Virus record (IMG/VR): IMGVR_UViG_3300012271_000010
Coordinates: 1-64,000 of that record
Length of the DNA stretch: 64,000 nucleotides
Strand: one strand, 5' to 3'
Source of the DNA: a virus
In this document: piece after piece, positions 1,035-16,006 of the stretch
How the letters are laid out: every line of letters begins with the position of its first letter
How positions within the stretch are numbered: position 1 is the first letter of the stretch
Program-made: the position numbers and the translations under genes
The notes under the pieces: model-generated
What the model saw: the letters and a program-made list of their open reading frames with translations, nothing else
What the model was told of the DNA's origin: nothing
Database searches by the model: none

Positions 1035-1119
1035 GCCGGGTTCGTATAGTGGACAATTACACCTGTTTTGTAATCAGGCGGCTCGACCTACGAGAGTTCG
1101 AATCTCTCACTCGGCTCCA
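1035..1119 (+). tRNA. tRNA-Thr(TGT), extended variable region
   Basis: gccgggt/actcggc acceptor, cctg..ttTGTaa..cagg anticodon arm, GTTCGAATC T loop, CCA. Confidence 0.85.
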
Positions 1120-1126
1120 ATTTTTT

Positions 1127-1424
1127 GGGGAATCTATGGAATCGATAAAGCAAGGAGGATAATTTACACAAGGAAGCCAGCCAACGAATGCTTTGATCAG
1201 CGTTGGAAAAAATAACTGCAAACGATAACATCGAACAGTTCGCTCCTATTGCTCTAGCAGCGTAGAAAGCCGGGTGTCAACTACCTCGGAACAGAAAGTT
1301 GAGAAAAGTGAGTGCGAGAAGAAAGAAAGAAGGATTTCAATATCCTAAAAATTGAATAACCTTGTAAGAAAGTAAATTATAGAAATTGTTTTAGACACCG
1401 GTTCGAATCCGGTATTCTCCACCA
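1127..1424 (+). ncRNA. ssrA: tmRNA, one-piece; tag peptide (A)ANDNIEQFAPIALAA
   Basis: ggggaat/attctcc acceptor with G3.U70, GAC + T arm + ACCA end; ataact-GCA resume codon at 1218, tag ORF ends TAG at 1265. Confidence 0.93.
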
Positions 1425-1503
1425 GGGCATAGCCCACGGGGTCACCGTAAGGTGGCTGACTGATTGCCGGATAAATCAGGATAAATAAGCCGGTCCTTGT
1501 TGT

Positions 1504-1579
1504 GCAGGATTAACTGAGATGGTTTTAGTGCTACCCTTACATGGTAGAAACGGGGGTTCGAATCCCTCATCCTGTACCA
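1504..1579 (+). tRNA. tRNA-Val(TAC)
   Basis: gcaggat/atcctgt acceptor, ctacc-ctTACat-ggtag, T arm, CCA. Confidence 0.9.
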
Positions 1580-1661
1580 GAGTGGATATTCGGCGGGACT
1601 GACTATCGTCCGGTTTTTTGTTTAGTCAACAGAGAATCCGAAACCACGCGTTTTAAAAAGG

Positions 1662-1690
1662 TTGACAGACTGTGAAGAGTGAGTTAAGGT
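1662..1690 (+). promoter_or_regulatory. sigma70-type promoter
   Basis: TTGACA-17 nt-TAAGGT upstream of ORF 1710. Confidence 0.5.
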
Positions 1691-1709
1691 CTAACGAAGA
1701 AAGGTATCC

Positions 1710-1961
1710 ATGAAAAGATGGTTAGTGACAGGAACGAATGAAAATGGTTTTATCTGGGTACTTGAATTTGTTGGCGACGAAAAACCAAATCGCGGGAGGA
1801 TAAATCACGCGTTTGCTTCGGAATATCCAGAACAATGGGAATTCGAACCAGAGATTAGAAAAATAAAAATTCGTGAGTTTACCGACGCCCCACCACACGC
1901 CACTCTTGGTCTTTCGCTTAAAAAAGGATTTAATTTAAATGGAGAAGAAATAGAATATTAA
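1710..1961 (+). CDS. Hypothetical protein
   Basis: 83 aa ORF with RBS, behind a promoter. Confidence 0.55.
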   Translation: MKRWLVTGTNENGFIWVLEFVGDEKPNRGRINHAFASEYPEQWEFEPEIRKIKIREFTDAPPHATLGLSLKKGFNLNGEEIEY

Positions 1962-1966
1962 AATAC

Positions 1967-2042
1967 GGTTATGAGTTGCGGATGGCGAGCAGCTTCATTG
2001 TCAATGAAATGGTAGTCGGTTCGATTCCGACCATGACCGCCA
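1967..2042 (+). tRNA. tRNA-Asp(GTC)
   Basis: ggttatg/catgacc acceptor, G73, ttca-ttGTCaa-tgaa, T arm, CCA. Confidence 0.85.
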
Positions 2043-2265
2043 GTCGTCCTGTCAACTCTGATATATATCATATTTAGAAAATATGATTAAGAGATTTTGT
2101 AAAAAGACAGGACAGGTAAAGAAGGTTCGCGACAGTCTTAGTAAGACGAAACGAAAGTCAGGAAAAGACTGCCTTCTTTACCAGGGACACGATGTAACAA
2201 CCGCCAAGTGGTGTGTCCTGGGTAATGCTAGTAGTTACAGAAATATGAGTCTGTCCAAATTGGGG

Positions 2266-2342
2266 GCGCCGCACGCATGCAGCGGTAGGAGCTTTCGAAT
2301 ACTCCATGGTTAAGTTAGGTTCGAATCCTAACAGGCGCACCA
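2266..2342 (+). tRNA. Atypical tRNA, probably Arg(TCG), with enlarged anticodon loop
   Basis: gcgcc/ggcgc acceptor, ggag/ctcc stem around ctttcgaata, gttagg-ttcgaat-cctaac T arm, CCA; irregular D arm. Confidence 0.5.
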
Positions 2343-2416
2343 GAGGCAGAAATATAGGTTCGAATCCTGTTGTCAACATTGTGTTGACCTCGTCTAACTG
2401 GTCAGGACGCTGCCGT
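2343..2416 (+). ncRNA. Circularly permuted tRNA-like RNA (3' half precedes 5' half; YrlA-like topology)
   Basis: Order is ggcag, T arm (atagg-ttcgaat-cctgt), gtcaaca-ttg-tgttgac closed acceptor, D arm (gtct-aactggtca-ggac), ctgcc. Confidence 0.75.
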
Positions 2417-2447
2417 TTTTTAAACTTCTTAAAGAAAAGGAACATAA

Positions 2448-2786
2448 ATGCCTTGTAAATCAGATCATATGGAAGCAGCCTCGGATGAAACCGAATCCCG
2501 ACGACTAGCTAATTTGGTTATGTACTTGAACGATTCTCTGGACATCACTACAAGTGAAGACATTAAAGAAGCTGCACACAGTTATTACGGGAATGTTAAG
2601 ATACTAGATTCTCTAACCGCATATACGTGTGGTAAGATTAAGCGGATGGACGAAGAAACTCTAAACAGGGTAGTTTACGACGGCAGAAACCCCACCGCCC
2701 GTCAATTAGCAGATTGGTATGAGCAACATGAGGCGTTTGACCGCCGACGCTTGCGAGAAGAAAAGAGAAGAAAAGTTAGTAAATAA
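2448..2786 (+). CDS. Hypothetical protein
   Basis: 112 aa ORF, AAGGA RBS. Confidence 0.7.
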   Translation: MPCKSDHMEAASDETESRRLANLVMYLNDSLDITTSEDIKEAAHSYYGNVKILDSLTAYTCGKIKRMDEETLNRVVYDGRNPTARQLADWYEQHEAFDRRRLREEKRRKVSK

Positions 2787-2901
2787 TGGAGAACCTACAT
2801 CTACAGGTTGTTACGATTGCAGAGGCACTGGTTTAAATTGTGAGAATTGTAATTCTTTAAAATAAAAAAGGTAGTAAATAATGGAGATTGATTTTACATA
2901 T

Positions 2902-2977
2902 GGGGAGGTAGCTGATGTGGTCTTAGCATGAATTTGAAGAATTTGAGATGTTGGTTCGATCCCGACCCTCCCCACCA
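2902..2977 (+). tRNA. tRNA-Phe(GAA)
   Basis: ggggagg/cctcccc, tgaat-ttGAAga-atttg, T arm, CCA. Confidence 0.85.
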
Positions 2978-2989
2978 TTAAATCATTTT

Positions 2990-3071
2990 GGCTATAGTGA
3001 ACGATGGACGTTCAGTGTCCTCATAAGGCATCGAGAAATCACCGCTGGTTCAATTCCAGCTATAGCTACCA
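2990..3071 (+). tRNA. tRNA-Met/Ile2(CAT), elongator-like, long variable region
   Basis: ggctata/tatagct, gtgtc-ctCATaa-ggcat, T arm, CCA. Confidence 0.8.
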
Positions 3072-3075
3072 TTGT

Positions 3076-3164
3076 GGCGGGGCGGAGACTGTTGGATGTC
3101 TCGTAGATCTCATAAGTCTATTTCCTCATGGAAGACGCATGTTCGATTCATGCCCCCGCACCCA
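3076..3164 (+). tRNA. tRNA-Met(CAT), initiator-like 1:72 mismatch, long variable arm
   Basis: ggcgggg/ccccgca (G1.A72), tagat-ctCATaa-gtcta, ttcc-tcat-ggaa variable hairpin, CCA. Confidence 0.75.
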
Positions 3165-3209
3165 TTTTAGAAAAAGAAAATTATGATTTTTGTTGCTTCA
3201 CTTTTGCTC

Positions 3210-3238
3210 TTGACACTTCACATCGTTCCTGGTATAGT
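3210..3238 (+). promoter_or_regulatory. sigma70-type promoter
   Basis: TTGACA-17 nt-TATAGT with extended TG, upstream of tRNA-Glu. Confidence 0.55.
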
Positions 3239-3333
3239 TTTTGCCGGATATACGCTGACAAGAGAAGTCGAAAATCGTATGTTATTAATTCGCAGCGGAC
3301 CAATGTCTGCTTGGTATAAGGAATAAAAAGTTT

Positions 3334-3408
3334 GGTGCCATCTTCTAGCGGCTAAGAAATCGGTTTTTCACATCGACAACTGGAGTTCGATTCTCCATGG
3401 CACTACCA
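3334..3408 (+). tRNA. tRNA-Glu(TTC)
   Basis: ggtgcca/tggcact, tcggt-ttTTCac-atcga, CCA. Confidence 0.88.
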
Positions 3409-3499
3409 AAAAGAGAAAATTATGTTTAAATGTATTAAAGATTATCCAAGCGAGCTTCAACAAGTTTACAACACACCCTTTTGTGTTGTTCGAAACTGA

Positions 3500-3574
3500 T
3501 GGAGCATCGTCTAACCGGTAGGACCTTCGACTTTGACTCGAAAAATATAAGTTCGAACCTTATTGCTCCAGCCA
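3500..3574 (+). tRNA. tRNA-Gln(TTG)
   Basis: tggagca/tgctcca, G73, ttcga-ctTTGac-tcgaa, CCA. Confidence 0.9.
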
Positions 3575-3604
3575 CTTTAAAAGATATCACAAAAGAGAAA
3601 AATT

Positions 3605-3925
3605 ATGAATAAGAATGTTGTTAATTTAAGCGATTTTAAAAAGAAAATGGCTCTAAAAGAGAAAATTGAGTCAGAGACTGAAGAAAAGTCATTGGCAGTC
3701 TTGACAGACGAGCAAATCGATCGTATCATGTACGCAACAATCAACGATCGCGAAGAAGATGAAGATCCCTCAGAAGAAGAGATGATTGCGGTTTTAGAGT
3801 GGGCTCAAACTACTATGGTGAGAGTCACATTCTTGAACTTAATGCTCAAGGGAAAAGTTTCCATCAAATGGGACGAAGATAAGAATTTTCTGTTTTCAGC
3901 TACTGAGGAATCCGAAGAAGAATAA
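3605..3925 (+). CDS. Hypothetical acidic protein
   Basis: 106 aa ORF between tRNAs. Confidence 0.65.
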   Translation: MNKNVVNLSDFKKKMALKEKIESETEEKSLAVLTDEQIDRIMYATINDREEDEDPSEEEMIAVLEWAQTTMVRVTFLNLMLKGKVSIKWDEDKNFLFSATEESEEE

Positions 3926-3933
3926 TAACTTAT

Positions 3934-4020
3934 GGAGAGTTGGCAGAGTCCGGCTGATTGCGCTAGTCTTGAAAACTAGAGGGCAGAGATGTCCCGAGGG
4001 TTCGAATCCCTCACTCTCTT
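3934..4020 (+). tRNA. tRNA-Ser(TGA)
   Basis: ggagagt/actctct, ctagt-ctTGAaa-actag, long variable arm; no encoded CCA. Confidence 0.9.
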
Positions 4021-4077
4021 TCAATTATGGTGAACAGTAGTAGTGGCTAACTTAACATTTTAATAAAAGGACTACAA

Positions 4078-4350
4078 ATGCCACTATTCAGAACTTTGCT
4101 TAATGATATGGAAAAAACTTTTGAAAGAGTGAAAGAGGCTGAATTTTTTAAGAAATATGGATTATGTCTTATATGCAAAGAAAGATCTGCAAGAGTTCAA
4201 AATCCACAAGTCACTAAAGAAGATATGATTTGTTTAGAATGTGAGGATAAGAGAGTCAACAAATTAACAACTGCGAGCCCAACTGGAACTCCAGTCTCAT
4301 TTTTCTCAAATGTTGTTGTTTATGATTATGAGCCGCTAGAAGAAGAGTAG
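4078..4350 (+). CDS. Hypothetical protein with two CxxC motifs (zinc finger)
   Basis: CLIC...CLEC; AAGGA RBS. Confidence 0.6.
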   Translation: MPLFRTLLNDMEKTFERVKEAEFFKKYGLCLICKERSARVQNPQVTKEDMICLECEDKRVNKLTTASPTGTPVSFFSNVVVYDYEPLEEE

Positions 4351-4356
4351 TGTTAT

Positions 4357-4431
4357 GCGTCGTCGGTCTCAATGGTGGGACATCAGCCTTCCAAGCTGAA
4401 TATCAGAAGGGTTCGATCCCCTTACGGCGCT
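4357..4431 (+). tRNA. tRNA-Gly(TCC)
   Basis: gcgtcgt/acggcgc, U73, tcagc-ctTCCaa-gctga; no encoded CCA. Confidence 0.85.
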
Positions 4432-4439
4432 TTACTTTT

Positions 4440-4517
4440 GCTGGTATATTTCAGTTAGGTCAGAATACTTTCTTGGTAAGAAAGAGGTCATTGGTTCAAA
4501 TCCAATTATCAGCTCCA
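4440..4517 (+). tRNA. tRNA-Thr(GGT)
   Basis: gctggta/tatcagc, ctttc-ttGGTaa-gaaag, CCA. Confidence 0.9.
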
Positions 4518-4542
4518 ATTTAACTTTAAACTAGAGGTAAAA

Positions 4543-4773
4543 ATGCCAGCTGAAAACAACACAATGGCTCAGTACAACATGGTCAAAGAGGCTTTTCTTG
4601 ATGCTCTGGTTAAGGACAACTTGATGAAGCAAGAAGTCGCAGACAGACTAAAAGAAACTTATGCGGTTGTTGTAACCCGCCGCTCTTGGCTCGGAAGGTT
4701 TATGGATAAACACATTTATAGCAAAGAAGAAGCTGATGAATTTAAGATTGTTATAATGCGGATTGTCAAATGA
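4543..4773 (+). CDS. Hypothetical protein
   Basis: 76 aa, GAGGT RBS, ATGA overlap with the next gene. Confidence 0.65.
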   Translation: MPAENNTMAQYNMVKEAFLDALVKDNLMKQEVADRLKETYAVVVTRRSWLGRFMDKHIYSKEEADEFKIVIMRIVK

Positions 4774-5114
4774 AAATACTTGTCTGTGGTGGTCGCGATT
4801 ATGATAATCGAGCTTATGTGTTTCAAGTTTTAGAAATGATTCATGAGGAAAATCCCATTACATGTGTCGTTCATGGTGCAGCCACCGGCGCAGATAGTCT
4901 AGGACAAGCCTGGGCGCTTTCTAAGGAGATTTCTGAGATTCCTTATCCTGCTGAATGGGACAAATTCAAACGAGCAGCAGGACCGATTAGAAACGCAAAG
5001 ATGCTTAGAGAAAATGAAGATATTGAGTTAGTTGTTGCATTTCCTGGTGGAAGTGGAACAGGAAATATGAGAATAAAAGCTGAAAGGGCAGGAATAGAAG
5101 TTATCTGTCTTTAA
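4770..5114 (+). CDS. SLOG-superfamily (YspA/DUF2493-like) protein
   Basis: LVCGGRDY, HGAATGAD, AGPIRN and FPGGSGT motifs. Confidence 0.85.
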   Translation: MKILVCGGRDYDNRAYVFQVLEMIHEENPITCVVHGAATGADSLGQAWALSKEISEIPYPAEWDKFKRAAGPIRNAKMLRENEDIELVVAFPGGSGTGNMRIKAERAGIEVICL

Positions 5115-5144
5115 TTTAAACGAAGAAAACAAAAGGAGAACAAT

Positions 5145-5381
5145 ATGTTTTTGGATAAAGAAGAAAAAGTGACGCAGAAACCTGGTAAATCATGGAAGAG
5201 TATCGTTTACCGTTCAACTTACGCTGAAGCTGATAAGTTCCGTAATGAAAAGTTGAAGGAAAAAGATTTGGATGTGAAGGTTAAATTTATGCCTTCAATG
5301 GACAAATTTGCAGTTAAGACGCGAAAAAAAGCCATTGTTGAATCCGAGACTGAACTAGTTAAAGATAACAAAGAGGGTTAA
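5145..5381 (+). CDS. Hypothetical basic protein
   Basis: 78 aa, AGGAG RBS. Confidence 0.6.
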   Translation: MFLDKEEKVTQKPGKSWKSIVYRSTYAEADKFRNEKLKEKDLDVKVKFMPSMDKFAVKTRKKAIVESETELVKDNKEG

Positions 5382-5384
5382 TTT

Positions 5385-6314
5385 ATGTCGAAATCGTACA
5401 AACTTGTTCTATCTGGGTCTGGTACTCGTTACCCATGTTTTATTGGAGCGGTAAAACGTCTCCTGGAAGAAGGTCTTGAAATAGAAGAGGTTTGTGGGAC
5501 CAGCGGCGGTGGAATTATTGCCGCTGGTCTTGGATGGAAGTATGATAAAGAAAATCCTCTTGATTCTATTAAATTTTTAGAAGATATGGCATTATCTCTT
5601 TTACCATCTGATTTGTTAGACCCTCATTGGTTTGATTTTGCTCTATCTTTTCGATGGAAGAATCTTTTCCACGGATATAACTTCAGTCCTCTGAATTTGT
5701 TTAGAAAAAATAAAGACGTCCTTACTCTTGATCCGAAGAAAATGGTTTTGACGAGAAACACTAACGGAATGTTTAAGGGTAATAAAATTCTTAAAGTTTT
5801 AGAGAAATCGCTGCCAGAAGATCTTGAATTGAAAATTCCAGTTGTTATTACAACATTCAATAACAACTGGAGAGTGGTAGATTTTTGGAAAAGAGAGAAA
5901 GGTAACACTGGTGATTTAGCAAAATTAGTTAGAGCTACTCTTTCTCTACCGATAATTTTTGATCCTGTTATGATTGAAGGAGACTTACATTCTGACGGTG
6001 GAAATATTGCTAATTTCCCACTTGATGTTTTTGGACGAGATGCTAAAGTTATTGGGTTGACATTCGAAGGAATGAATCCAACACGAGTAGTAATTGATGA
6101 TAAACTTGATATTGCTGGAGCCAATCTAGACGGTATGATGAACGCGTCAATGGAAGAAGATATCCACGACGCCGGTCCAAACGCCCATGTTTGTCAGATA
6201 CGCACTAGACACACTGGTCTCAACCTTATGATGACTCCTGCCGACGTCGCAGAACAAATACTCGACGGATATGACAGTGTGTCCCGGTGGCTCAAAGAAA
6301 ATCCAGATCTGTAA
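5385..6314 (+). CDS. Patatin-like phospholipase
   Basis: LVLSGSGTR oxyanion loop, GTSGG nucleophile elbow, DGG catalytic Asp. Confidence 0.88.
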   Translation: MSKSYKLVLSGSGTRYPCFIGAVKRLLEEGLEIEEVCGTSGGGIIAAGLGWKYDKENPLDSIKFLEDMALSLLPSDLLDPHWFDFALSFRWKNLFHGYNFSPLNLFRKNKDVLTLDPKKMVLTRNTNGMFKGNKILKVLEKSLPEDLELKIPVVITTFNNNWRVVDFWKREKGNTGDLAKLVRATLSLPIIFDPVMIEGDLHSDGGNIANFPLDVFGRDAKVIGLTFEGMNPTRVVIDDKLDIAGANLDGMMNASMEEDIHDAGPNAHVCQIRTRHTGLNLMMTPADVAEQILDGYDSVSRWLKENPDL

Positions 6315-6331
6315 AAAACTCTTTCAGACAC

Positions 6332-6360
6332 TTGACATCTTAACTTCGATGGGTTACACT
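6332..6360 (+). promoter_or_regulatory. sigma70-type promoter
   Basis: TTGACA-17 nt-TACACT upstream of tRNA-Ile. Confidence 0.6.
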
Positions 6361-6377
6361 GGTTCCAGAACGTATTT

Positions 6378-6452
6378 GCTCCCGCAGCATGACGGTCATG
6401 CGCGCTTCTTATAAGGGTAAAAATGTGGGTTCAATTCCCACCGGGAGTACCA
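6378..6452 (+). tRNA. tRNA-Ile(TAT)
   Basis: gctcccg/cgggagt, gcatgac-ggtcatgc D arm, ctTATaa loop on a weak G.U-rich stem, CCA. Confidence 0.75.
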
Positions 6453-6485
6453 AAGAAAGTGAACCATAAAAGAAAGTTGTAAATT

Positions 6486-6734
6486 ATGAGTGCAGTGAAA
6501 GTAGATTCCAAAACAGATCGTAAATACTTTATTCAATATTGTAAGGATTCGAATTGGATTTTTAGTCAACTTGATTCGGTTCAAGGTGGATTTGACCGGA
6601 CCTCTGATGCAGAGGCGGTAATTGACGATGTAATGGTTTTCCATAATGATTTCTCAGGATTTAATTATAGAATCCTTCAACGAACAACAATTATTCTTGA
6701 TGAACCACGTCAAGACTATAATAGTGGTTGGTAA
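6486..6734 (+). CDS. Hypothetical protein
   Basis: 82 aa ORF between tRNAs. Confidence 0.55.
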   Translation: MSAVKVDSKTDRKYFIQYCKDSNWIFSQLDSVQGGFDRTSDAEAVIDDVMVFHNDFSGFNYRILQRTTIILDEPRQDYNSGW

Positions 6735-6744
6735 AATTTAATGA

Positions 6745-6824
6745 GCGCTTGTATACCCTCCCGCTACGAACGGGTCGAAAGGTTAACTGGATACATGTGA
6801 GTTCGACTCTCCCCAAGCGTACCA
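6745..6824 (+). tRNA. Non-canonical tRNA-Arg(ACG) with split/re-threaded D arm
   Basis: gcgcttg/caagcgt + ACCA, cccg-ctACGaa-cggg, T arm; only tatacc between acceptor and anticodon arm; ggttaactggata lies 3' of the anticodon arm. Confidence 0.7.
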
Positions 6825-6842
6825 CCTTATACTACAATTTGT

Positions 6843-6915
6843 GCCCCGAGCAATGGATATGCAGGCAGGTCTTCTAAACCAGCCTTTCTAAGTTCGATTC
6901 TTAGTCGGGGTGCCA
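6843..6915 (+). tRNA. tRNA-Arg(TCT)
   Basis: gccccga/tcggggt, ggt-ctTCTaa-acc, short D arm gca-atggata-tgc, CCA. Confidence 0.75.
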
Positions 6916-7082
6916 TGTTCGGTAGTGTAATGGATTTCCGTAAAAAGGGTGGACTAGGACCCTGATTTGGAAAATCAATACCTGTGTAATGAGGAGCACG
7001 CACTTTTCATTATGTAGCAAAAATTGACGCACGCGCTTCTCATGAGAACGTAGAGGAGGTTCGATTCCTTCCTGAACAGCCA
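6916..7082 (+). ncRNA. tRNA-like RNA (CAT anticodon) with ~95-nt structured insertion in the D loop
   Basis: tgttcgg/ctgaaca + GCCA; D stem gtgt(6925)/gcac(7029); cgctt-ctCATga-gaacg; ggagg-ttcgatt-ccttc T arm. Confidence 0.7.
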
Positions 7083-7387: not shown

Positions 7388-7448
7388 GCTCTCTCTAGAG
7401 GAGCTAGATAAAGCCGATGAAACAGTTCGATTCTGTTAGAGAGCACCA
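7388..7448 (+). ncRNA. Mini tRNA-like RNA lacking a normal anticodon arm
   Basis: gctctct/agagagc + ACCA, aacag-ttcgatt-ctgtt T arm, only 26 nt in between. Confidence 0.7.
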
Positions 7449-7471
7449 CCACCAAAAAAAGGATTGATTTA

Positions 7472-7693: not shown

Positions 7694-7748
7694 ATTGGTC
7701 AGCATTGTTGCAGAGATCAAGCAGGTGTTGCTTGTAAAGGGGTAATAG

Positions 7749-8160: not shown

Positions 8161-8166
8161 ACTTAT

Positions 8167-9155: not shown

Positions 9156-9233
9156 TGTAGTTGAACCGACCGGGTGTCGGTGCCGAGCTGTTAACTCGGA
9201 ATAAGGTAGGTTCGAGTCCTACAACTACAGCCA
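9156..9233 (+). tRNA. tRNA-Asn(GTT)
   Basis: tgtagtt/aactaca, G73, ccgag-ctGTTaa-ctcgg, CCA. Confidence 0.88.
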
Positions 9234-9397: not shown

Positions 9398-10583
9398 ATC
9401 GGAAACAAAGCGATGCGCTATATGTGGAAATACGAATTCTAGGAAAGGTAAGACGCAGTTTTGTTCAACCAAGTGTTATTTAGAGTCTAATAGAAGTGTA
9501 AAGAAATGTGAAGTTTGTAAAAAAGAATATTCTTATATATCTTTTTATGAAAAAAGGACGTGTTCTAGAAAATGCGGAGCTAAAATAAATGCTTCATGTT
9601 ATCAAAAAGACCCAAAAACATGGGTAACGACAAAATGCAATATTTGCAATAAAGATTTTGATGTACGAATCAAAAGGTTGAAGAGGACCAAGAACGTGTT
9701 ATGCAGCACTAAATGTTCTGCGGAATTTAGATCTATTAACTTTAATCATGATCGGATATTGAATCACTATTCTGGATTCTTTTCATCTCTTAAATCAGGA
9801 GGTGAAAAGAAAATTAGATTTGATTCCTCTTGGGAATTGAGAAGGTTTAAAGAATTAGAATTTGATCCAAAAGTCATTCTATGGGATAGATGTCAAGATA
9901 AAATACTTTGGTATGATTCTGACAATAAAAAGCATCATTATAATCCAGATATTTATATTGAGTACGAAGACGGTAAAAGAGTAGTGGAAGAAATTAAAGG
10001 ATTCATGAATGAAGAATCTAAATTAAAAATTGAAGCTGGCGAAGAGTTTTACGACAGAACAGAAATATTATTTCGGGTAATAGATAATAAGAATATCTTA
10101 TTTGATAAAAAACTTGAATATAAAACAGAAGAGTATGAAAATGATTATGGAATATTTAATCGACTTAAAATGGAATATATTTGGATGTCTCTAGCAATTA
10201 TGTTAGCAAGCAAATCTACTTGTTCTCGATTAAAAGTAGGTTCAGTTATAACCGATTCTGGCATGAATAGAGCACTTTGTGTTGGATATAATGGAGATGA
10301 AAAAGGGGGCAAAAACCAGTGTGAAAGTTTAAAACCAGGAAAATGTGGTTGTTTGCATGCTGAAACTAACGCGATAGCGAAATCCCGCGAATCACTAGAA
10401 AATTGTATCTTATTCGTAACAACAGCACCTTGCAAATCTTGCGTTAAGTTGATTATTAACTCAGGTATAAGAGAAGTAATATATAATGAAGTTTATAGGG
10501 ACACTAGTGGACTCAAATTGATGAAACAGCGTGGTCTTAAAGTAACACGTTTTAGCAAAATTGAAGATGATACCCTTCTTTAG
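9390..10583 (+). CDS. Fusion: CxxC zinc-repeat region + TnsA/gp4-like PD-(D/E)xK endonuclease + dCMP deaminase
   Basis: Repeated CxxC...CSxxC; SSWE...YNPDIYI...EEIKG; C-terminal STC-KVG, GYNG, HAETNAI, PCKSC deaminase motifs. Confidence 0.8.
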   Translation: MSKSETKRCAICGNTNSRKGKTQFCSTKCYLESNRSVKKCEVCKKEYSYISFYEKRTCSRKCGAKINASCYQKDPKTWVTTKCNICNKDFDVRIKRLKRTKNVLCSTKCSAEFRSINFNHDRILNHYSGFFSSLKSGGEKKIRFDSSWELRRFKELEFDPKVILWDRCQDKILWYDSDNKKHHYNPDIYIEYEDGKRVVEEIKGFMNEESKLKIEAGEEFYDRTEILFRVIDNKNILFDKKLEYKTEEYENDYGIFNRLKMEYIWMSLAIMLASKSTCSRLKVGSVITDSGMNRALCVGYNGDEKGGKNQCESLKPGKCGCLHAETNAIAKSRESLENCILFVTTAPCKSCVKLIINSGIREVIYNEVYRDTSGLKLMKQRGLKVTRFSKIEDDTLL

Positions 10584-10586
10584 GGC

Positions 10587-10614
10587 TTGACTTACTGAGA
10601 AAACGTGGTATAGT
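10587..10614 (+). promoter_or_regulatory. sigma70-type promoter
   Basis: TTGACT-16 nt-TATAGT with extended TG. Confidence 0.5.
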
Positions 10615-10640
10615 GGTTAGACAAGAAAACGGAGGCGGAG

Positions 10641-11279
10641 TTGAAGATAGTGGCAATTAGCGATACTCACAATCAACTTCGTAACATTAAGGTTCCCCAT
10701 GGTGATGTCCTGATCCATGCTGGCGATTTCACAATGAATGGAACCGCCAACGAAATTCGTGAGTTTAATCATGAGCTTAGTCTCTTATCTCACGCACATA
10801 AAATTGTGATTGCAGGCAATCACGATATAAATTTTGAAATGGAACCGGTTGAATCTAGAAAATTACTAACTAATGCAATTTATCTAGAAGATAGTGGAGT
10901 TGAAATCGGAGGAGTAAAGTTTTGGGGTTCACCCTGGCAGCCACAGTTTTATGATTGGGCTTTCAACCTTGAACGAGGTTTGCCTTTGAAAGAAAAGTGG
11001 CAACAGATTCCATCTGATACAGATGTTCTTATTACTCACGGACCTCCAAAGGAAATCCTTGACGAAGCACCCCGAAAGGGAATTTTGAATTATTTGAATG
11101 TTGGTTGTAAAGATTTGAGAGAAGAGGTTCTGTATAGAATCCAACCAAAATATCATGTCTTTGGACACATTCACAATGGATACGGTTATAAGTCTTTTGG
11201 AAACATTAATTTTATCAACGCATCTATTTTGAACGAGAGATACAAAATCGAAAATAAGCCTATTATTTTCAACATTTAA
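10641..11279 (+). CDS. Calcineurin-like metallophosphoesterase (MPPED-like)
   Basis: SDTH, HAGD, GNHD, THGPP and GHIH motifs; TTG start with GGAGG RBS. Confidence 0.9.
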   Translation: MKIVAISDTHNQLRNIKVPHGDVLIHAGDFTMNGTANEIREFNHELSLLSHAHKIVIAGNHDINFEMEPVESRKLLTNAIYLEDSGVEIGGVKFWGSPWQPQFYDWAFNLERGLPLKEKWQQIPSDTDVLITHGPPKEILDEAPRKGILNYLNVGCKDLREEVLYRIQPKYHVFGHIHNGYGYKSFGNINFINASILNERYKIENKPIIFNI

Positions 11280-11365
11280 AGGAAGAATTAAAATGAAAAA
11301 CTACGCAAAACGAAAACATAAACGATAGGGCTGGGATGTGCCCGTTGAAACATCCCACACCATGT

Positions 11366-11443
11366 GGGTTTGTAGTATAACGGATGTATTATACTCGGCT
11401 CTTAACCGATGAGATTTGGGTTCGAATCCCAACAGACCCACCA
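11366..11443 (+). tRNA. tRNA-Lys(CTT)
   Basis: gggtttg/cagaccc, tcgg-ctCTTaa-ccga, CCA. Confidence 0.88.
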
Positions 11444-11446
11444 CAT

Positions 11447-11522
11447 GGGTTGTTAGTTCAATTGCGTAGAACATGTGGCTTTTAACCATTCAATCCGAGT
11501 TCGAGTCTCGGACAACCCACCA
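11447..11522 (+). tRNA. tRNA-Lys(TTT)
   Basis: gggttgt/acaaccc, gtgg-ctTTTaa-ccat, CCA. Confidence 0.88.
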
Positions 11523-11553
11523 ATTTTGAGAAGAAAATAGATTTTTGAGTTTT

Positions 11554-11826
11554 TGTTCGTGCTGCCGTCGTTTGGATAGCTGGCAGCCACTTGCACCGAA
11601 AGAAGTCTCAGCTGAACCTGCGAATCGAAAGTGAAGCGGGGAGAAAGATGACTTGAGGTTTGAGGTTCGATAGGAGGGGCGTCGCTGCCCCAAAAATGTG
11701 CCTCGCGCGTGGTGAGTTCTTGATAGTAGGAAAAGGTGTACTGAGAATGCACTAAAGTACAAAATCATAGCCCTGTCAGTCTCAGACAGAGCGAAAAGAC
11801 TTAGGGTTCAATCCCCTACACGAACA
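11554..11826 (+). ncRNA. Unidentified 273-nt structured RNA with tRNA-like 8-bp acceptor and T arm
   Basis: tgttcgtg/cacgaaca ends, taggg-ttcaatc-cccta T arm, GC-rich multi-hairpin interior in an AT-rich genome. Confidence 0.65.
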
Positions 11827-11851
11827 TTTTTTATTTGGAGAAGAAAAAAAC

Positions 11852-12469
11852 ATGAGTGACAAATTACTTGGAAAAATGATCAAAGAGTTGACTGAAAACA
11901 ATATCAGTATAAAATTTGTAAACAAAAGTACTCTTGAAGATGATAGTCCAATGTTGGGGTTTTTCTGTGAATTGGATAAATTAATCGAAGTAGGAACTCT
12001 CGACGACGGCTGGTTTCAGACTTTCGCTCATGAATATTGTCACTTTAAACAGTGGAAAGATGGTCTCTTTGACGATATAACAACAATAGCTGCATATGCC
12101 ACATTAGATAATTGGGTGGACAGGAACAGAGAACTACCATCAGAAACAGTAAAGAAATTTATCCGTTGCATGCAGTTTATTGAATGGGACAATGAAAAAC
12201 GTACAATTGAATTTCTTGATAAAAACAAAATTGATTATGACAGAGAAGCTTATGTTAAGAAAGCTAACGTTTATGTTGCTTCTCATGAATTAACAAGACG
12301 TATTAGACGATGGCAAAGTAAACCATTGAGTACTGTTCCCGGAGTAAGTGATTTATTTTCAGGGGAAGAAATGATGCTAGAAAGAGATTTTGGGAATCTC
12401 CCAGAAGGTTTTGAAGCATTAGCAATTTCATCTTTTGAAGAAGTTATCGTTGAGGAAGAAGAGGATTAA
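11852..12469 (+). CDS. HExxH zinc-metallopeptidase-like protein
   Basis: FAHEYCH motif with a downstream E. Confidence 0.6.
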   Translation: MSDKLLGKMIKELTENNISIKFVNKSTLEDDSPMLGFFCELDKLIEVGTLDDGWFQTFAHEYCHFKQWKDGLFDDITTIAAYATLDNWVDRNRELPSETVKKFIRCMQFIEWDNEKRTIEFLDKNKIDYDREAYVKKANVYVASHELTRRIRRWQSKPLSTVPGVSDLFSGEEMMLERDFGNLPEGFEALAISSFEEVIVEEEED

Positions 12470-12514
12470 AATGGACTATTATTATTATAAGATTAGACAT
12501 ACCCATATCAACAT

Positions 12515-12603
12515 GGGAGACTTTCCTCGCGGTTGGCTGTAAACCAATTACCATAATAAGCGGGGTGGACGGTGAGAAGGTTCAATTCCTTAGTCTCCCA
12601 CCA
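12515..12603 (+). tRNA. Non-canonical tRNA-Tyr(GTA) with split/re-threaded D arm
   Basis: gggagac/gtctccc + ACCA, gttgg-ctGTAaa-ccaat; cctcgc (5' of anticodon arm) pairs with gcgggg (3' of it), followed by tggacggt and the T arm. Confidence 0.7.
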
Positions 12604-12624
12604 AATTAAACCGATTATGTGTAT

Positions 12625-12713
12625 GGTGGCTGTGCTGGAAATGGTAGACAGGCTGGGCTGTGAACCCGGTGTTTGATAAAGACGTGCGAGTTCGAAGCTC
12701 GTCAGTCACCCCA
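12625..12713 (+). tRNA. tRNA-His(GTG) with class-II-like long variable arm
   Basis: G-1/C73, gtggctg/cagtcac, ctggg-ctGTGaa-cccgg, tgttt..agacg variable hairpin, CCA. Confidence 0.85.
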
Positions 12714-12738
12714 ATTCAAAAAACACACTTAGGAAGAA

Positions 12739-12945
12739 ATGAAAGTAGGAACAAGAGTAAAAGTTATTTGTTCATGTTGTCAAAATGGAGCATGGACTCT
12801 TTTGGAACAAGAAGGAATAATTTACAAAGATTTTAATACTGCTTATTGCGAAGACCTCACGGTGACACAAAATCTCTACGGCATCAGATTCGACGACAAG
12901 ACCGAGGGATCCTTCTGGACAAAACAGATTGAGGTGTTATACTGA
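12739..12945 (+). CDS. Small SH3/KOW-like hypothetical protein
   Basis: MKVGTRVKV N-terminus typical of small phage beta-barrels. Confidence 0.5.
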   Translation: MKVGTRVKVICSCCQNGAWTLLEQEGIIYKDFNTAYCEDLTVTQNLYGIRFDDKTEGSFWTKQIEVLY

Positions 12946-13115
12946 TGTTCTACTGGCTCTCGACAACGAAGATGACTGTGATGGTGGAAACCGATGAAAA
13001 CGATATTCTCATTGAAGCAGCACCAATAGTAAGAAGATTCTTGGGACAGACGATAGAAGACCTTGCAATGTGGATGAACAGACAAGAAGGTTTTAAAATA
13101 GAGGAGTTAAATTGA

Positions 13116-13307
13116 ATGGAATACGAAAAAGGTGATCTGATGAAACATAATGATGGTTCATTGGGAATTATTACTAAAGTAAGCACCTACCGTTATCAAA
13201 TCTCTTGGTTTGAAGAACGTACGTTAACCAATCTCAGTTATACCTGGATTAATAAAAATATTTCAAAGAAATACCTTCCAGTGTGTATTAGTCGAACAAA
13301 GTTGTGA
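13116..13307 (+). CDS. Small SH3/KOW-like hypothetical protein
   Basis: KGDL...GII pattern; GAGGAG RBS. Confidence 0.5.
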   Translation: MEYEKGDLMKHNDGSLGIITKVSTYRYQISWFEERTLTNLSYTWINKNISKKYLPVCISRTKL

Positions 13308-13314
13308 AAGTTAT

Positions 13315-13401
13315 GGGGATGTGGTGGAACTGGTTTACACAGCAGGCTTAAAACTTGTAGCCCGCGAGGGCTTGTGGGTTCGAATCCCACCATCCCTACC
13401 A
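13315..13401 (+). tRNA. tRNA-Leu(TAA)
   Basis: ggggatg/catccct, gcagg-ctTAAaa-cttgt, agccc/gggct variable arm, CCA. Confidence 0.92.
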
Positions 13402-13405
13402 TTTT

Positions 13406-13483
13406 AGGTTAGTAGAGAATTGGTATATCGAGGGGATTCAAACTTCCCTGTCTATGTGGGTTCGAGTCCCACCTAACCTACCA
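13406..13483 (+). tRNA. tRNA-Leu(CAA), short variable region
   Basis: aggttag/ctaacct, gggga-ttCAAac-ttccc, CCA. Confidence 0.8.
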
Positions 13484-13498
13484 TTTTAAGAGGAATAA

Positions 13499-14035
13499 AT
13501 GAAGAGAACAATCTTGTGCTTGCTAGCACTACTTATAAATGCTAGTTGTTTCTATCTACCAGTTTCAATACCTGATGGTGGAGTTGGAACAATTAGTGAT
13601 GCAGGAACAGGACAAAGATTAGGAGATTTAGATGCAGGTGAGACAAATGATTCTGGAAACCCTCAAACAGACAGCGGTATCATCATCGATCTTGATGGCG
13701 GCGTTTTCGTGGACGCTGGTAATGAAGATGACGCTGGATTTATTGCAGGCGACGCAGGTTTGGTAGACTCTGGACCATTTGACTCTGGGATTTTTGATGG
13801 AGGTTTGTTTGATTCTGGAATCTTCGAGTTTGATGCTGGCTTTGTAGACGCTTCTGTGATTATTGACGCAGGAACAGAAATTGTAGATGCTTCTATTGAA
13901 ATTGATGCCGGAGAAGAATGCGAAGATACTCATGGACATCATGGATACGGTAGTTGGAATGAACCTGAGCCAAGTTGGAATGAACCAGAATCGGAATGTC
14001 CAGATGAATCGGAGCACGAATGGTGGGAGAATTGA
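13499..14035 (+). CDS. Acidic D-[AGS]-G repeat lipoprotein
   Basis: Signal peptide with lipobox-like NASC; many DAG/DSG/DGG triplets; C-terminal SWNEPE repeat. Confidence 0.7.
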   Translation: MKRTILCLLALLINASCFYLPVSIPDGGVGTISDAGTGQRLGDLDAGETNDSGNPQTDSGIIIDLDGGVFVDAGNEDDAGFIAGDAGLVDSGPFDSGIFDGGLFDSGIFEFDAGFVDASVIIDAGTEIVDASIEIDAGEECEDTHGHHGYGSWNEPEPSWNEPESECPDESEHEWWEN

Positions 14036-14315
14036 TTAAAAAAGGTCAACTTTTAAAAGTTATACGTTGTACGTTTGAAAGTACCGTCACCGCCGAAACG
14101 CGCGGCACCGAAACACCGGTGTTCCCCGCCCACTACCGCGTCGCCGACGACGTCGACGGTCTTAAATTTCTTGATATAGGAACACTGCTGATTGTGACCA
14201 GGGAACAAAGTGACACCAATATTGGGATCGAAGCTTACAACCCAAAAACAAATAGAACTATTTTTGTACCGATGAACGATGTTATTAAACTTTAGCTTAA
14301 AAAAAAGGTAGTTAT

Positions 14316-14389
14316 ATTCCAGAGCGTAGGTTGTGTCGACCGATCTCCAAAATCGTGTTGTGAGAGTTCGAATCTCTCCTGGTTTGCCA
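14316..14389 (+). tRNA. Degenerate tRNA-Trp(CCA)
   Basis: cgat-ctCCAaa-atcg, gagag-ttcgaat-ctctc, G73-CCA; acceptor and D arm imperfect, 5' end uncertain. Confidence 0.55.
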
Positions 14390-14392
14390 ATT

Positions 14393-14563
14393 ATGATAAT
14401 ATGTGTTTGCAATAATTTAAACGAGCAAGAAATCCAAACAGCAATTTCAGGCGGATGTAAAACAGCTTCAGAAGTTTGGGAATTTCATAAGTGCAGAGGA
14501 AGATGTACCAAGTGCGTTCCTGAAATCGAAGAAAGTATTGAAAATGAAAAAGATAGAACTTAA
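14393..14563 (+). CDS. Bfd-like [2Fe-2S] ferredoxin
   Basis: MIICVCNN...CTKC (CxC...CxxC); start set at ATG 14393 after the tRNA. Confidence 0.8.
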   Translation: MIICVCNNLNEQEIQTAISGGCKTASEVWEFHKCRGRCTKCVPEIEESIENEKDRT

Positions 14564-14744
14564 ACTAGGTGAACTGGTCACAGCTTGTGGAAACGGAGCC
14601 GCCGCCAGCCGAAAATTTGGAATTTTGATTAAAGTAGTGGATGAAGAAGACGGCGACACTTGGTATGACGCAAATGTCTATTGGGTAGGTAAATATCCTC
14701 GTTTTGAGAGGGTGTGTCTCTCTTATCTAAGAAAAATAACTTGA
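14538..14744 (+). CDS. Small SH3/KOW-like hypothetical protein
   Basis: LKLGELV...FGI pattern. Confidence 0.5.
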   Translation: MKMKKIELKLGELVTACGNGAAASRKFGILIKVVDEEDGDTWYDANVYWVGKYPRFERVCLSYLRKIT

Positions 14745-14769
14745 CACCGTCAAATTAAACTGTTAGAAC
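14741..14769 (+). promoter_or_regulatory. sigma70-type promoter (copy 1 of a related pair)
   Basis: ttgacaccgtcaaattaaactgttagaac. Confidence 0.55.
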
Positions 14770-14783
14770 CAACTTATTAAAGT

Positions 14784-15008
14784 ATGAAATCATTATTTAA
14801 AAAAGGAGATCTAGTAAAAATAAAAGAAAGTGTTGGCGGAAACGATACACTATTTAAAGGATTTGGCATAATAATAGATATAAAAAAATATCCTGACAGA
14901 AAAGGAACAATGTTGATAATGAATAGAATTTATTTCTTAAAAACAGGACAAGAAGATATTTTTGGTGACGATGAAATCGATAAAAAATACTTGACACCGG
15001 CGAAATAA
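14784..15008 (+). CDS. Small SH3/KOW-like hypothetical protein
   Basis: FKKGDLVKI...GIII pattern. Confidence 0.55.
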   Translation: MKSLFKKGDLVKIKESVGGNDTLFKGFGIIIDIKKYPDRKGTMLIMNRIYFLKTGQEDIFGDDEIDKKYLTPAK

Positions 15009-15019
15009 ACTGCTAGAGT
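14991..15019 (+). promoter_or_regulatory. sigma70-type promoter (copy 2 of a related pair)
   Basis: ttgacaccggcgaaataaactgctagagt. Confidence 0.55.
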
Positions 15020-15177
15020 CTATTTATAAAAAGGAGGAGAGATCATGTGTAAAGAAATGTTATTTGTTGAACAACTGGAAAGTGAACTTCTCCTTTTGCC
15101 CGTCTAGGGTCAAACAAATAGAAAAATTGAATAGTTCGAGTCTAGATTGGATAAACCTTTCTTTGTAAAATTTATGT

Positions 15178-15256
15178 GTGGGTAAGGGCGATTTTGGTAC
15201 GCCACTCCGTTTGGGGCGGAGAAATCTTGAGAGTTCGAACCTCTCTACCCGCACCA
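15178..15256 (+). tRNA. tRNA-Pro(TGG)
   Basis: gtgggta/tacccgc, ctccg-ttTGGgg-cggag, CCA. Confidence 0.82.
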
Positions 15257-15336
15257 TTGGCATCACTAAAGGGGCTGTGATTTAATAGAGGGGGCTAAAA
15301 CCCTGAAGCCTTGTTTTTTGTTAAAGGTGTAGTTAC

Positions 15337-15615
15337 ATGTCAAATGTTAAAATTGAAGAATATAGAAAATTACTTGAAAAGGTCTCAAGAATACGCTCTC
15401 AACAAGGAGAGGTGACATCGTTGATCGAGCAAACTCTCGCCGCAGGAGCCATTGGCACCGCTACAAGTATGAAATACCATTGTTCGGATTTGGAAGATAC
15501 AGAAGATTCATATCTCGAACAAATGGATAAAGTTTGGTACTCAATGTCCGAAGAAGAAATTGAAGTTATAAAAAATCTTTTATCTAAAGAGAGAGAAAAT
15601 GATAACGAATCTTAA
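15337..15615 (+). CDS. Hypothetical protein
   Basis: 92 aa ORF. Confidence 0.6.
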   Translation: MSNVKIEEYRKLLEKVSRIRSQQGEVTSLIEQTLAAGAIGTATSMKYHCSDLEDTEDSYLEQMDKVWYSMSEEEIEVIKNLLSKERENDNES

Positions 15616-15733
15616 TGTCCCACCAGAATTTTATCAATTGGCGCACCCACGACCCGCACTATGTTTGGAAACAAGGTGTTAGTTATGGAGGAAGTTCTTG
15701 CTGGATTCCAGCGATTAGATAAAAAATAAGTTT

Positions 15734-15807
15734 GGCTGTGTATTCCAACTGGCAGAGAAGATCGACTTAGAATCGATACAGTGTGGGTTCGACTCCCACC
15801 ACAGCTA
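15734..15807 (+). tRNA. tRNA-Leu(TAG), short variable region
   Basis: ggctgtg/cacagct, A73, atcga-ctTAGaa-tcgat; no encoded CCA. Confidence 0.85.
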
Positions 15808-16006
15808 GGAATGAAAAGTTAAAGTACCTGCATGCGGTTCATTCTGCACGACCCTTGATTTGGTCGACTAAATCTTTAACGATTAACCAGTATTTGTCTT
15901 TAGCTTTTTGATTCATTTTAATTATCGAGGAGTGAGTTGCACTGGATACGTCAACGGTTATTGGCAAACGGTCTCTTACGGCTGTTAAAAAACAAAGAAA
16001 TAAAAC

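Follow-up and report, generated by a model that had tools for sequence, protein, structure and literature searches.

The DNA analysed here (the window) consists of 64,000 nucleotides (nt), positions 1 to 64,000 of the IMG/VR virus record IMGVR_UViG_3300012271_000010. At 72,110 bases, the record has an estimated completeness of about 40% (CheckV), and the genome is 36.9% GC. Genes for a baseplate wedge, a tape-measure-like protein, a glycosyltransferase, a PIN-PhoH protein, a denV-like glycosylase, a dCMP deaminase, a patatin and a SLOG-domain protein identify it as phage DNA. Near its start lies a long array of tRNA genes, all on the + strand, in which ARAGORN finds 20 tRNA genes and one transfer-messenger RNA (tmRNA), spanning 1035-15808 (Table 1). 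Scattered through this array are nine further elements that carry a tRNA-like T-arm, here labelled A to I. Among them, a 272-nt structured RNA (G), a permuted tRNA mimic (B) and non-canonical tRNAs with Arg anticodons (C and D) have counterparts in related phages and show compensatory base changes, and others are variable or degenerate.

The T-arms were located with the motif TTCRANNC, requiring at least four of the five flanking stem pairs. There are 30 such hits on the + strand inside the array (1097-15788), only one on the same strand in the remaining ~48 kb, and two on the - strand, so that 30 of the 33 motifs of the window are + strand motifs of the array. Nine of the 30 fall outside the ARAGORN genes. 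Rfam matches 15 tRNAs at its gathering score, and 17 at 29 bits or more once its filters are made laxer; three ARAGORN genes (Met 2990-3071, Met 3076-3164 and Pro 15178-15256) are never matched by the tRNA model RF00005. The gathering threshold of that model, 29 bits, is reached by none of the nine odd elements, and elements A to G have no Rfam match at E up to 10. The mitochondrial mode of ARAGORN leaves C, H, A, B and F unrecognised. Six elements (C, D, E, F, H and I) combine a seven-pair acceptor with a T-arm and CCA. A has five acceptor pairs and CCA, G has seven pairs and a T-like hairpin without CCA, and in B the acceptor-like helix is closed.

The ARAGORN genes carry 19 distinct anticodons. 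The total comes to about 23 when UCU (D) and CCA (I), obtained at a lowered ARAGORN threshold, and ACG (C) and GUA (H), obtained by alignment to relatives and inspection, are added. No tRNA for Ala or Cys was found in the array. The initial annotation, made from the letters of the sequence, had described a near-complete tRNA set of about 25 anticodons accompanied by a tmRNA and by at least five non-canonical architectures. Its anticodon count was close, and the tRNA set, the tmRNA and the odd architectures are all recovered here, the folds likewise distinguishing at least five of the latter. It had also placed the genes under shared sigma70-type promoters. Matches to TTGACA-17-TAnnnT of at least 10/12 begin on the + strand at 985, 3210, 3701, 6332, 8132, 8957, 10587 and 14991, ahead of gene groups, and some belong to repeat families, D6 (979, 8126, 8951) and D5 (14732, 14982). 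The sites are thus of the TTGACA type and repeated, but they are consensus matches only, and all TTGACA-type sites in the scan number 59 vs 42 +/- 7.3 in shuffles.

Table 1. Features of the tRNA array and its neighbourhood, in window coordinates (ORF, open reading frame).
Feature	Position	Strand	Basis and remarks
Promoter-like site TTGACA-17-TAGGAT	985..1013	+	upstream of tRNA-Thr; repeat family D6; consensus match only
tRNA-Thr(UGU), 85 nt, first gene of the array	1035..1119	+	ARAGORN, Rfam
One-piece tmRNA, tag ANDNIEQFAPIALAA	1127..1424	+	ARAGORN; RF00023, 79.5 bits
tRNAs Val, Asp, Phe, Met (two, 82 and 89 nt), Glu, Gln, Ser, Gly and Thr(GGU), among small ORFs	1504..4517	+	ARAGORN
A, degenerate tRNA-like element	2262..2342	+	fold; relatives carry tRNA-Ile(GAU) at the same position
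B, permuted YrlA-like tRNA mimic	2345..2415	+	minimum-free-energy fold, compact-architecture scan
tRNA-Ile(UAU)	6378..6452	+	ARAGORN; promoter-like site 6332-6360 in front
C, non-canonical tRNA-Arg(ACG)	6745..6824	+	conserved in G002; uncalled by ARAGORN or Rfam
D, non-canonical tRNA-Arg(UCU)	6843..6915	+	ARAGORN ps80 calls Arg(tct); G001 orthologue
E, 167-nt tRNA-framed RNA	6916..7082	+	fold z -1.90; retained in near-identical strains
F, 61-nt mini tRNA-like element	7388..7448	+	comparison with G001
tRNA-Asn(GUU)	9156..9233	+	ARAGORN
MPPED2-like metallophosphoesterase	10641..11279	+	E 6.4e-56; 5' of G in 4/4 G-bearing contigs
tRNA-Lys(CUU) and tRNA-Lys(UUU), immediately 5' of G	11366..11522	+	ARAGORN
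G, 272-nt tRNA-framed structured RNA	11555..11826	+	four homologous copies, covariation
205-amino-acid protein, HExxH motif FAHEYCH	11852..12469	+	3' of G in 4/4 contigs
H, tRNA-Tyr(GUA)-like element	12515..12603	+	alignment to relatives' Tyr genes
tRNA-His (88 nt, long variable arm), Leu(UAA), Leu(CAA)	12626..13483	+	ARAGORN, Rfam
I, tRNA-Trp(CCA)	14316..14389	+	lowered ARAGORN threshold; Rfam 20.2 bits
tRNA-Pro(UGG) and tRNA-Leu(UAG), final genes of the array	15178..15808	+	ARAGORN

Relatives were sought with the 205-amino-acid protein encoded downstream of G as anchor. Two IMG/VR contigs, G001 and G002 (array loci L001 and L002), and a 4.5-kb metagenome contig, L015, are syntenic with the window; the anchor also recovered a 100%-identical contig, L014. 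A farther clade, with PIN-PhoH proteins of 54-58% identity, has few tRNAs in its records, and its complete 184-kb genome (G006) has 10 standard tRNAs in a compact cluster and lacks G. The large, ORF-interspersed array with its odd RNAs is therefore a feature of a narrow clade. A megablast search of 1000-16000 against 50,697 phage records returned only a 78-nt tRNA-Leu match, in three Streptomyces phage records.

Element G is present in the window, G001, G002 and L015, in copies of 272-277 nt that align end to end and are about 65-80% alike. RNAalifold gives 69 pairs in 15 helices, arranged as a five-way junction. An acceptor-like stem of seven pairs (GTTCGTG/CACGAAC, G1-C72, plus A73) is followed by a D-like hairpin next to it, two large domains of ~125 and ~95 nt, and a T-like hairpin; the large domains stand where a tRNA has its anticodon and variable arms. 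In all, ~190 nt are conserved yet not tRNA-like. Paired cells amount to 96.0% vs 86.2 +/- 1.2 in shuffles. Both partners have changed in 24 of the 69 pairs vs 9.6 +/- 2.3, a value reached in none of 500 shuffles, and when the partners are slid by 1-3 columns only 1-6 such pairs are left. No reading frame is conserved among the four copies on either strand. A T-run follows every copy (11827-11832 in the window), and none encodes a full CCA, the ends before the T-run being A, ACC, GC and AC.

No Rfam family matched G with an E of 10 or less, and restricting the search to 301 or 306 nt did not change this. Two DNA patterns derived from G matched only G001 and G002 among viral contigs; a single match in genome contigs (L033) lies in a coding region without tRNAs and was set aside as chance. 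A profile search with nhmmer and a covariance model (R1; 21 sources, 292,657 bases) each returned only the four distinct copies, and R1 found nothing credible in five farther relatives, among them the complete 184-kb genome (best E 0.28, 7.7 bits). The order deaminase, MPPED2-like phosphoesterase, G, HExxH protein is kept in all four contigs, and tRNA-Lys genes separate G from the phosphoesterase in three of them (window, G001, G002). Because the contigs are closely related, this order is weak evidence for a functional tie.

G may be a protein-binding or catalytic RNA that matures in the manner of a tRNA. Two known kinds of RNA invite comparison. The tRNA cluster of phage T4 encodes small stable RNAs C and D ('species 1 and 2'), of unknown function. 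Going by description only, the likeness is that of non-tRNA stable RNAs encoded among phage tRNA genes and co-matured; G is set apart, again by description, by its larger size and its full acceptor/T frame. With tmRNA it shares the plan of a long RNA whose ends form an acceptor stem beside a T-arm-like hairpin, but it lacks an Rfam tmRNA match, G3-U70, a conserved tag frame and an encoded CCA. Literature searches on T4 stable RNAs and phage tRNA-like arrays, with supplements such as the phage YrlA tables of PMC4201824 outside their scope, gave no elements like G or B. With neither an Rfam family nor a literature counterpart found, G appears to be new.

Element B is predicted (minimum-energy fold) to have the parts of a tRNA in a permuted order: a closing stem of five pairs (GGCAG/CTGCC), 4 nt in the place of the variable region, a T-arm, a closed seven-pair helix (GTCAACA-TTG-TGTTGAC), 2 nt (CT) and a D-arm with GG in its loop, followed by the second strand of the closing stem, a G and a T-run (2416-2421). 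Its junctions have the lengths expected of a tRNA that is permuted at the anticodon arm, and its 5' part shows 78% identity to the stretch from anticodon stem to T-arm in the tRNA-Val of the array (repeat D8). In G001 there is a syntenic counterpart, directly after the tRNA at the position of A. Its sequence differs and its fold is the same, with a helix TATCAC/GTGATA, the helix loop AACCATA and a 3' end ACCA; four of the ten aligned pairs, in the T-arm and the helix, are compensatory between the two copies. A strict scan for this compact architecture retained two of 128 T-arms from five sources, namely B and its G001 copy. Two hits never occurred together in 300 rounds of shuffling: 14 rounds had a single hit and the other 286 were empty (0.047 per round). 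Two B-like candidates with long inserts (65-75 nt), L001:18537-18660 and L002:14925-15057, fit the scheme by eye, and the first, which has a T-run, is placed last in its array; they could not be separated from chance and were not counted.

The same order of parts, V, T, a closed acceptor-like stem-loop and D, is given for the tRNA-like domain of YrlA RNAs in the portions of Chen et al. 2014 (PMC4201824) used here. Those portions also state that a YrlA with a seven-pair closed stem, from M. smegmatis, is cut by RNase P and receives CCA, that YrlA RNAs are reported from phage genomes, and, as a warning, that dimeric tRNAs can mimic the YrlA pattern. B shows this order within its closing helix, together with the GG of the D-loop, the T-loop TTCGAAT and a closed stem of seven pairs, as in the RNase P-cut RNA. 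It differs from YrlA in that its closing helix has only five pairs and lacks a Ro-binding module, and in standing directly after a tRNA with a T-run at its end. B has no Rfam match of the Y-RNA type, and the TROVE/Ro60 domain (PF05731) was found in none of the three records G000 (the window phage), G001 and G002, which are fragments 21-40% complete. B would end its transcription unit and may present a tRNA elbow that has neither an anticodon nor a free 3' end. A Ro-less YrlA-like module in the closing position of a tRNA transcription unit appears to be new.

Elements C, D and I are predicted to be conserved, non-canonical tRNAs, and all three show compensatory changes. C has a seven-pair acceptor, an 8-nt linker where a D-arm is expected, an anticodon hairpin with the loop CTACGAA, a 22-nt region with a D-loop-like GGTTAACTGGATAC, a T-arm and ACCA. 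Its homologue in G002 is 85% identical over 62 nt, and 4 of the 19 pairs show compensatory changes; at this position G001 has a standard Arg(ACG). In D, 0 nt separate the acceptor from a three-pair D-stem, the anticodon stem is extended, the variable region is reduced to 2-3 nt, and the end is GCCA. The G001 orthologue of D has the same shape, and 8 of 20 pairs are compensatory. The UCU anticodon in the loop of D was found on no other carrier in the window, and AGA is the commonest Arg codon (52% of the Arg codons in 31 large ORFs). Element I is orthologous to a G002 gene for tRNA-Trp(CCA) that is called by ARAGORN; two U-U oppositions occur in the acceptor stem of the window copy. At the lowered ARAGORN threshold D and I show a 7-nt anticodon loop on a five-pair stem together with a D-arm, whereas C lacks the D-arm, F, B and G have no anticodon arm, and the loop of A is 10 nt.

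Every element of the window with an Arg anticodon is thus non-canonical, and an Arg tRNA build without a D-arm appears to be new. By inspection, G002 also has tandem genes with the Arg anticodons UCU and UCG at L002:4296-4468, with a build like that of C: acceptor, a 7-nt linker TAACCGA, anticodon arm, a 22-nt variable region and T-arm. The CCGA of this linker could pair with TCGG of the variable region. Novel cloverleaves of bacteria and phages, the 8/4 and 9/3 tRNAs, have been described by Mukai et al. (PMC5389517). As far as the consulted sections of that paper go, phage tRNA clusters can include functional tRNAs whose stems are non-standard and whose variable arms are long; here, His (88 nt), Met (82 and 89 nt) and Thr (85 nt) are comparable. 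C, with its D-loop-like sequence after the anticodon arm, and D, without a linker at positions 8-9, are neither 8/4 nor 9/3 as defined there. The tRNA-His of the window may, by analogy, be related to the phage 8/4 tRNA-His of the same sections. Long variable arms are unusual for the identities of the four genes that have them here (Thr 1035-1119, Met 2990-3071 and 3076-3164, His 12626-12713), and 85 nt is unusually long for a Thr tRNA.

Element E has an acceptor TGTTCGG/CTGAACA with U1-A72, then G73 and CCA, and a T-arm. Extra hairpins of about 95 nt in all come after the 5' strand of its D-arm, and there is a possible CAU anticodon hairpin; ARAGORN with the option -i calls it Met(cat) with a 95-nt insert. 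At a similar place G001 and G002 have an RNA of ~110 nt that is likewise tRNA-framed (L001:2170-2278 and L002:3700-3811; 'X'). It shows a seven-pair acceptor GGGGGCG, a normal D-arm and, in place of the anticodon arm, a branched domain of ~50 nt, without CCA; 9 of 32 pairs are compensatory between G001 and G002. Homology of E and X is not claimed, only ATAGTGTAA being common to E and the X RNAs of both contigs.

The remaining elements, A, F and H, look like degenerate or variable copies, probably products of turnover of the island. In A the acceptor has five pairs, the 'anticodon' loop is 10 nt long and the 3' end reads ACCA; the element aligns to the Ile(GAU) genes of G001 and G002 in the T-arm and 3' acceptor only; it gave no Rfam match even when 191 nt were searched. 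F, with a perfect seven-pair acceptor, T-arm and ACCA, corresponds to an Arg(CCU)-like gene of G001 minus 12 nt, among them the anticodon loop. Its acceptor position 3 is compensatory relative to G001 (T-A to C-G). H is short of the Tyr(GUA) genes of relatives by ~12 nt of D-arm, and scores 25.7 bits on the tRNA-Sec model (cut-off 47).

Contigs of near-identical strains from four other runs show this turnover. The stretch 2247-2337, at element A, is swapped for 77 other letters in three of the four runs, with B retained downstream. The second tRNA-Met (3075-3150) is deleted in one run, and tRNA-Asn (9155-9229) is replaced or absent in three of four. Among the ORFs, 7101-7310 is deleted in two runs (segment 7093-7297) and part of 8722-8979 in three (segment 8736-8912). 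Three runs also lack 14795-15145, the stretch between two copies of a promoter-bearing repeat. The block C-D-E is kept, with two differing letters over 5908-7092, and so is G, with four. The island is a hotspot of gene gain and loss and is polymorphic in the population.

Of the neighbouring proteins, the HExxH protein encoded 3' of G belongs to no Pfam or PHROG family. Its relatives in the Atlas are in phage clusters only, with a weak Peptidase_M78 lead, and its profile found nothing convincing among PDB sequences (best E 0.017). At 20 loci with relatives of it (12 metagenome and 8 viral, the window's own contig left out), tRNA genes occur at nine: L001, L002, L015, L017, L021, L022, L023, L028 and L030. 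Five of these (L021, L022, L023, L028, L030) are phage tRNA arrays, otherwise unrelated, inside which the family recurs. A protein of 397 amino acids at 9390-10583 joins Cys-rich N-terminal repeats and a weak TnsA-like endonuclease match (E 0.0011) to a dCMP deaminase domain. The small ORFs of the array are blank in Pfam for 18 of 20 tested and in PHROGs for 8 of 10. At the 5' side, ~250 nt in front of the first promoter (700-950) have no convincing ORF and end in a strong terminator-like hairpin (927-948); they may be a small RNA. At the 3' side a conserved GC-rich hairpin with a T-run (GCGAGCATCC...GGATGCTCG TTTT) closes the array in all three phages (window 16501-16545; L001:~18713-18760; L002:~15193-15240). 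A match resembling the hepatitis delta virus ribozyme at 2184-2250 reached 21.9 bits (E 2.5), where the cut-off is 44, and was taken as chance.

On balance, the array is best explained, with a confidence somewhat above even, as an expanded, fast-turnover tRNA island of an uncultured large tailed phage, holding mixed tRNA-derived genes and not one coordinated 'mimic system'. That explanation builds on what is observed of the presence, architecture, conservation, covariation and strain-level gain and loss of its elements. Its transcription units would be read from sigma-70-type promoters, and host tRNA-processing enzymes would cut them out, because nearly all keep the acceptor/T-arm frame. The working tRNAs, including the odd C, D and I, would serve the A/U-ending codons of the phage, D as the sole carrier of the anticodon for AGA. 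B, G and E would be structured RNAs derived from tRNA that keep this frame, are probably processed by host enzymes, and cannot decode. B would close its transcription unit with a tRNA elbow that is neither chargeable nor readable; G would be a folded RNA with a function of its own, binding or catalytic; and E would be a lineage-specific, 167-nt relative of the structured-RNA theme. A, F and H would be by-products of the same turnover. The repertoire of tRNA mimics beyond standard tRNAs that the initial annotation proposed is supported, several of its members (G, D, C and B) being conserved and not in decay; A, F and H are variable or degenerate.

Several points weigh against this explanation. 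We infer transcription and processing of the odd elements from DNA, as well as charging and any role in defence. The anticodons of C, H and A were assigned by inspection. G is known from four sequences of one narrow clade, whose kinship inflates the shuffle tests, the slid-partner control being independent of it. B has one compact counterpart only, G002 has just a plain hairpin at its position, and a permissive scan for B-like folds gave 8 hits in the five sources vs a shuffled mean of 3.28 and a maximum of 7. E has no homologue in relatives, and its predicted structure comes from one lineage. The z-scores of single-sequence folds are modest (B -1.3 to -1.6, G -0.68, C +0.45).

A bolder extension, which has to be regarded as doubtful, is that in this clade the tRNA scaffold has been adapted into a set of non-decoding RNA tools. 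G could then found a new class of ornate, 'tRNA-framed' RNAs; matured by RNase P and by trimming at its 3' end, it could be a ribozyme, or a high-affinity decoy or sponge for a host factor directed at tRNA. B-type elements could be Ro-independent YrlA-like mimics, or permuted tRNAs joinable by phage RtcB; they would show defence or repair enzymes a tRNA body without its anticodon loop, a look-alike of nuclease-cleaved tRNA. The large, mostly non-redundant set, including Lys, Tyr, Asn and Arg, resembles the counter-defence phage tRNAs treated in the passages of PMC10264068 and PMC11555353 drawn upon here; the idea of decoys among non-decoding mimics is not part of those passages.

It is unlikely that the array is instead a coordinated platform for counter-defence or translation takeover, in which B, E and G share a partner through a TGTT/AACA motif and the metallophosphoesterase and PIN-PhoH act on RNA ends, as the initial annotation supposed. 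Its observation of the motif is correct: the pairs open the acceptor-like helices at 2382, 6916 and 11554, E and G have TGTTCG...GAACA in common, and none of the 20 ARAGORN tRNAs starts with TGTT (Asn starts with TGTA). As a common recognition element, however, the motif finds no support in the comparison. The homologues of G start with (T)GCTCGTG, (A)GCTCGTG and (T)GTCCGTG, the syntenic copy of B has its own helix TATCAC/GTGATA, and E has no homologue in the relatives. In G, moreover, the T and A of the motif are position -1 and the discriminator (73), outside the seven-pair G1-C72 stem. Recent sequence exchange within the genome may be an alternative source of the shared letters.

MPPED2 is a cyclic-nucleotide phosphodiesterase-type enzyme. 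Since the metallophosphoesterase matches MPPED2, a role in cyclic-nucleotide signalling is at least as likely as RNA-end healing, and the case for an RNA-end enzyme is weakened. PIN-PhoH is generic in large phages, occurring in 3816 phage records at up to 38% identity, and is also present in relatives without a large array. In favour of a platform, the phosphoesterase and the HExxH protein flank G in all four contigs and both recur in the distant array L022, the former as a homologue 36% identical. G002 has RtcB inside its array (L002:5291-6376, G002:26592-27677; E 1.6e-128) and a protein of the RNA-ligase family just 5' of it (PF09414, E 1.7e-15; G002:16384-16980), which would count in favour of a tRNA-repair theme, but neither RtcB nor an RNA ligase was found in the 72 kb of the window phage, in G001 or in the complete G006. 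That phage tRNAs can counter tRNA-cleaving defences is known from the same passages of PMC10264068 and PMC11555353.

That all nine odd elements are decaying tRNA pseudogenes without a function of their own is quite unlikely. A is strain-variable, F lacks an anticodon loop, H is short of part of its D-arm, E is unique, and none of the nine attains the Rfam tRNA gathering score, in arrays that gain and lose genes in the population. Compensatory pairs argue against decay, however, in G (24/69), D (8/20), C (4/19) and the T-arm and helix of B (4/10), as do the ~190 nt of conserved, non-tRNA-like sequence in G and the fact that D bears the only UCU anticodon, for the commonest Arg codon. The initial annotation had named patchy, non-covarying and unexpressed elements as the mark of decaying genes; A, F and H are indeed patchy, but G, D and C covary, and B is kept in position and architecture.

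Circularly permuted tRNA genes are known in the red alga Cyanidioschyzon merolae, and B resembles them in having a 3' half before the 5' half and a breakpoint at the anticodon arm; it differs in encoding no anticodon loop and in its bacterial or phage context. If B-type elements were such genes, an RtcB-like ligase would join their ends, and RNase P and 3' trimming would open the acceptor, giving a functional or repair-mimicking tRNA. Both the arrangement of the parts and the junctions (0-1 nt between T-stem and helix, 2 nt before the D-arm and 0-1 after it) fit permutation at the anticodon loop, and the acceptor and anticodon-stem strands are complementary. The G001 copy has ACCA in its helix loop, where the 3' end would fall, an RtcB lies in the G002 array, and the RNase P-cut, CCA-receiving M. 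smegmatis YrlA offers a parallel (PMC4201824, in the portions cited above). This reading is nevertheless very unlikely. No anticodon loop is present at the ends, where the flanks GA...G+T-run and CA...ACCATTTT give no consistent 7-nt loop; the loop of the window copy has 3 nt and no CCA; RtcB was found only in G002, which has no compact B at the syntenic site; and no title on permuted tRNA in phages occurred among the matches listed (titles only).

It is hardly credible that G is a known RNA in disguise, either a tRNA that carries a self-splicing intron, another tmRNA or an RNase P RNA of minimal size: its ends are tRNA-like, its 272 nt lie within the size range of small group I introns and tmRNAs, and the window copy has three in-frame stops (TGA TAG TAG), but the Rfam searches of G found none of these, no Rfam intron model matches G or E, the flanks of the insert form no anticodon stem, G3-U70 is replaced by U-A, U-A, U-G and C-G in the four copies, the triple stop is not conserved among them, and a canonical tmRNA is already present at 1127-1424.

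Phage tRNA arrays, phage tmRNAs, counter-defence by phage tRNAs and mimicry of the YrlA type are already known. Arrays of this kind are usually read as lists of anticodons, but here a third of the genes that bear a T-arm escape the standard finders, and the comparative data indicate that selection maintains some of the odd ones: a 272-nt RNA, a Ro-less YrlA-like mimic and Arg tRNAs without a normal D-arm. If these are expressed, they would extend the known viral reuses of the tRNA fold and would supply concrete candidates for RNA decoys against tRNA-targeting immunity. It would also mean that automatic annotation underestimates both the coding capacity (Arg, Trp, Tyr) and the non-coding content of such phages.

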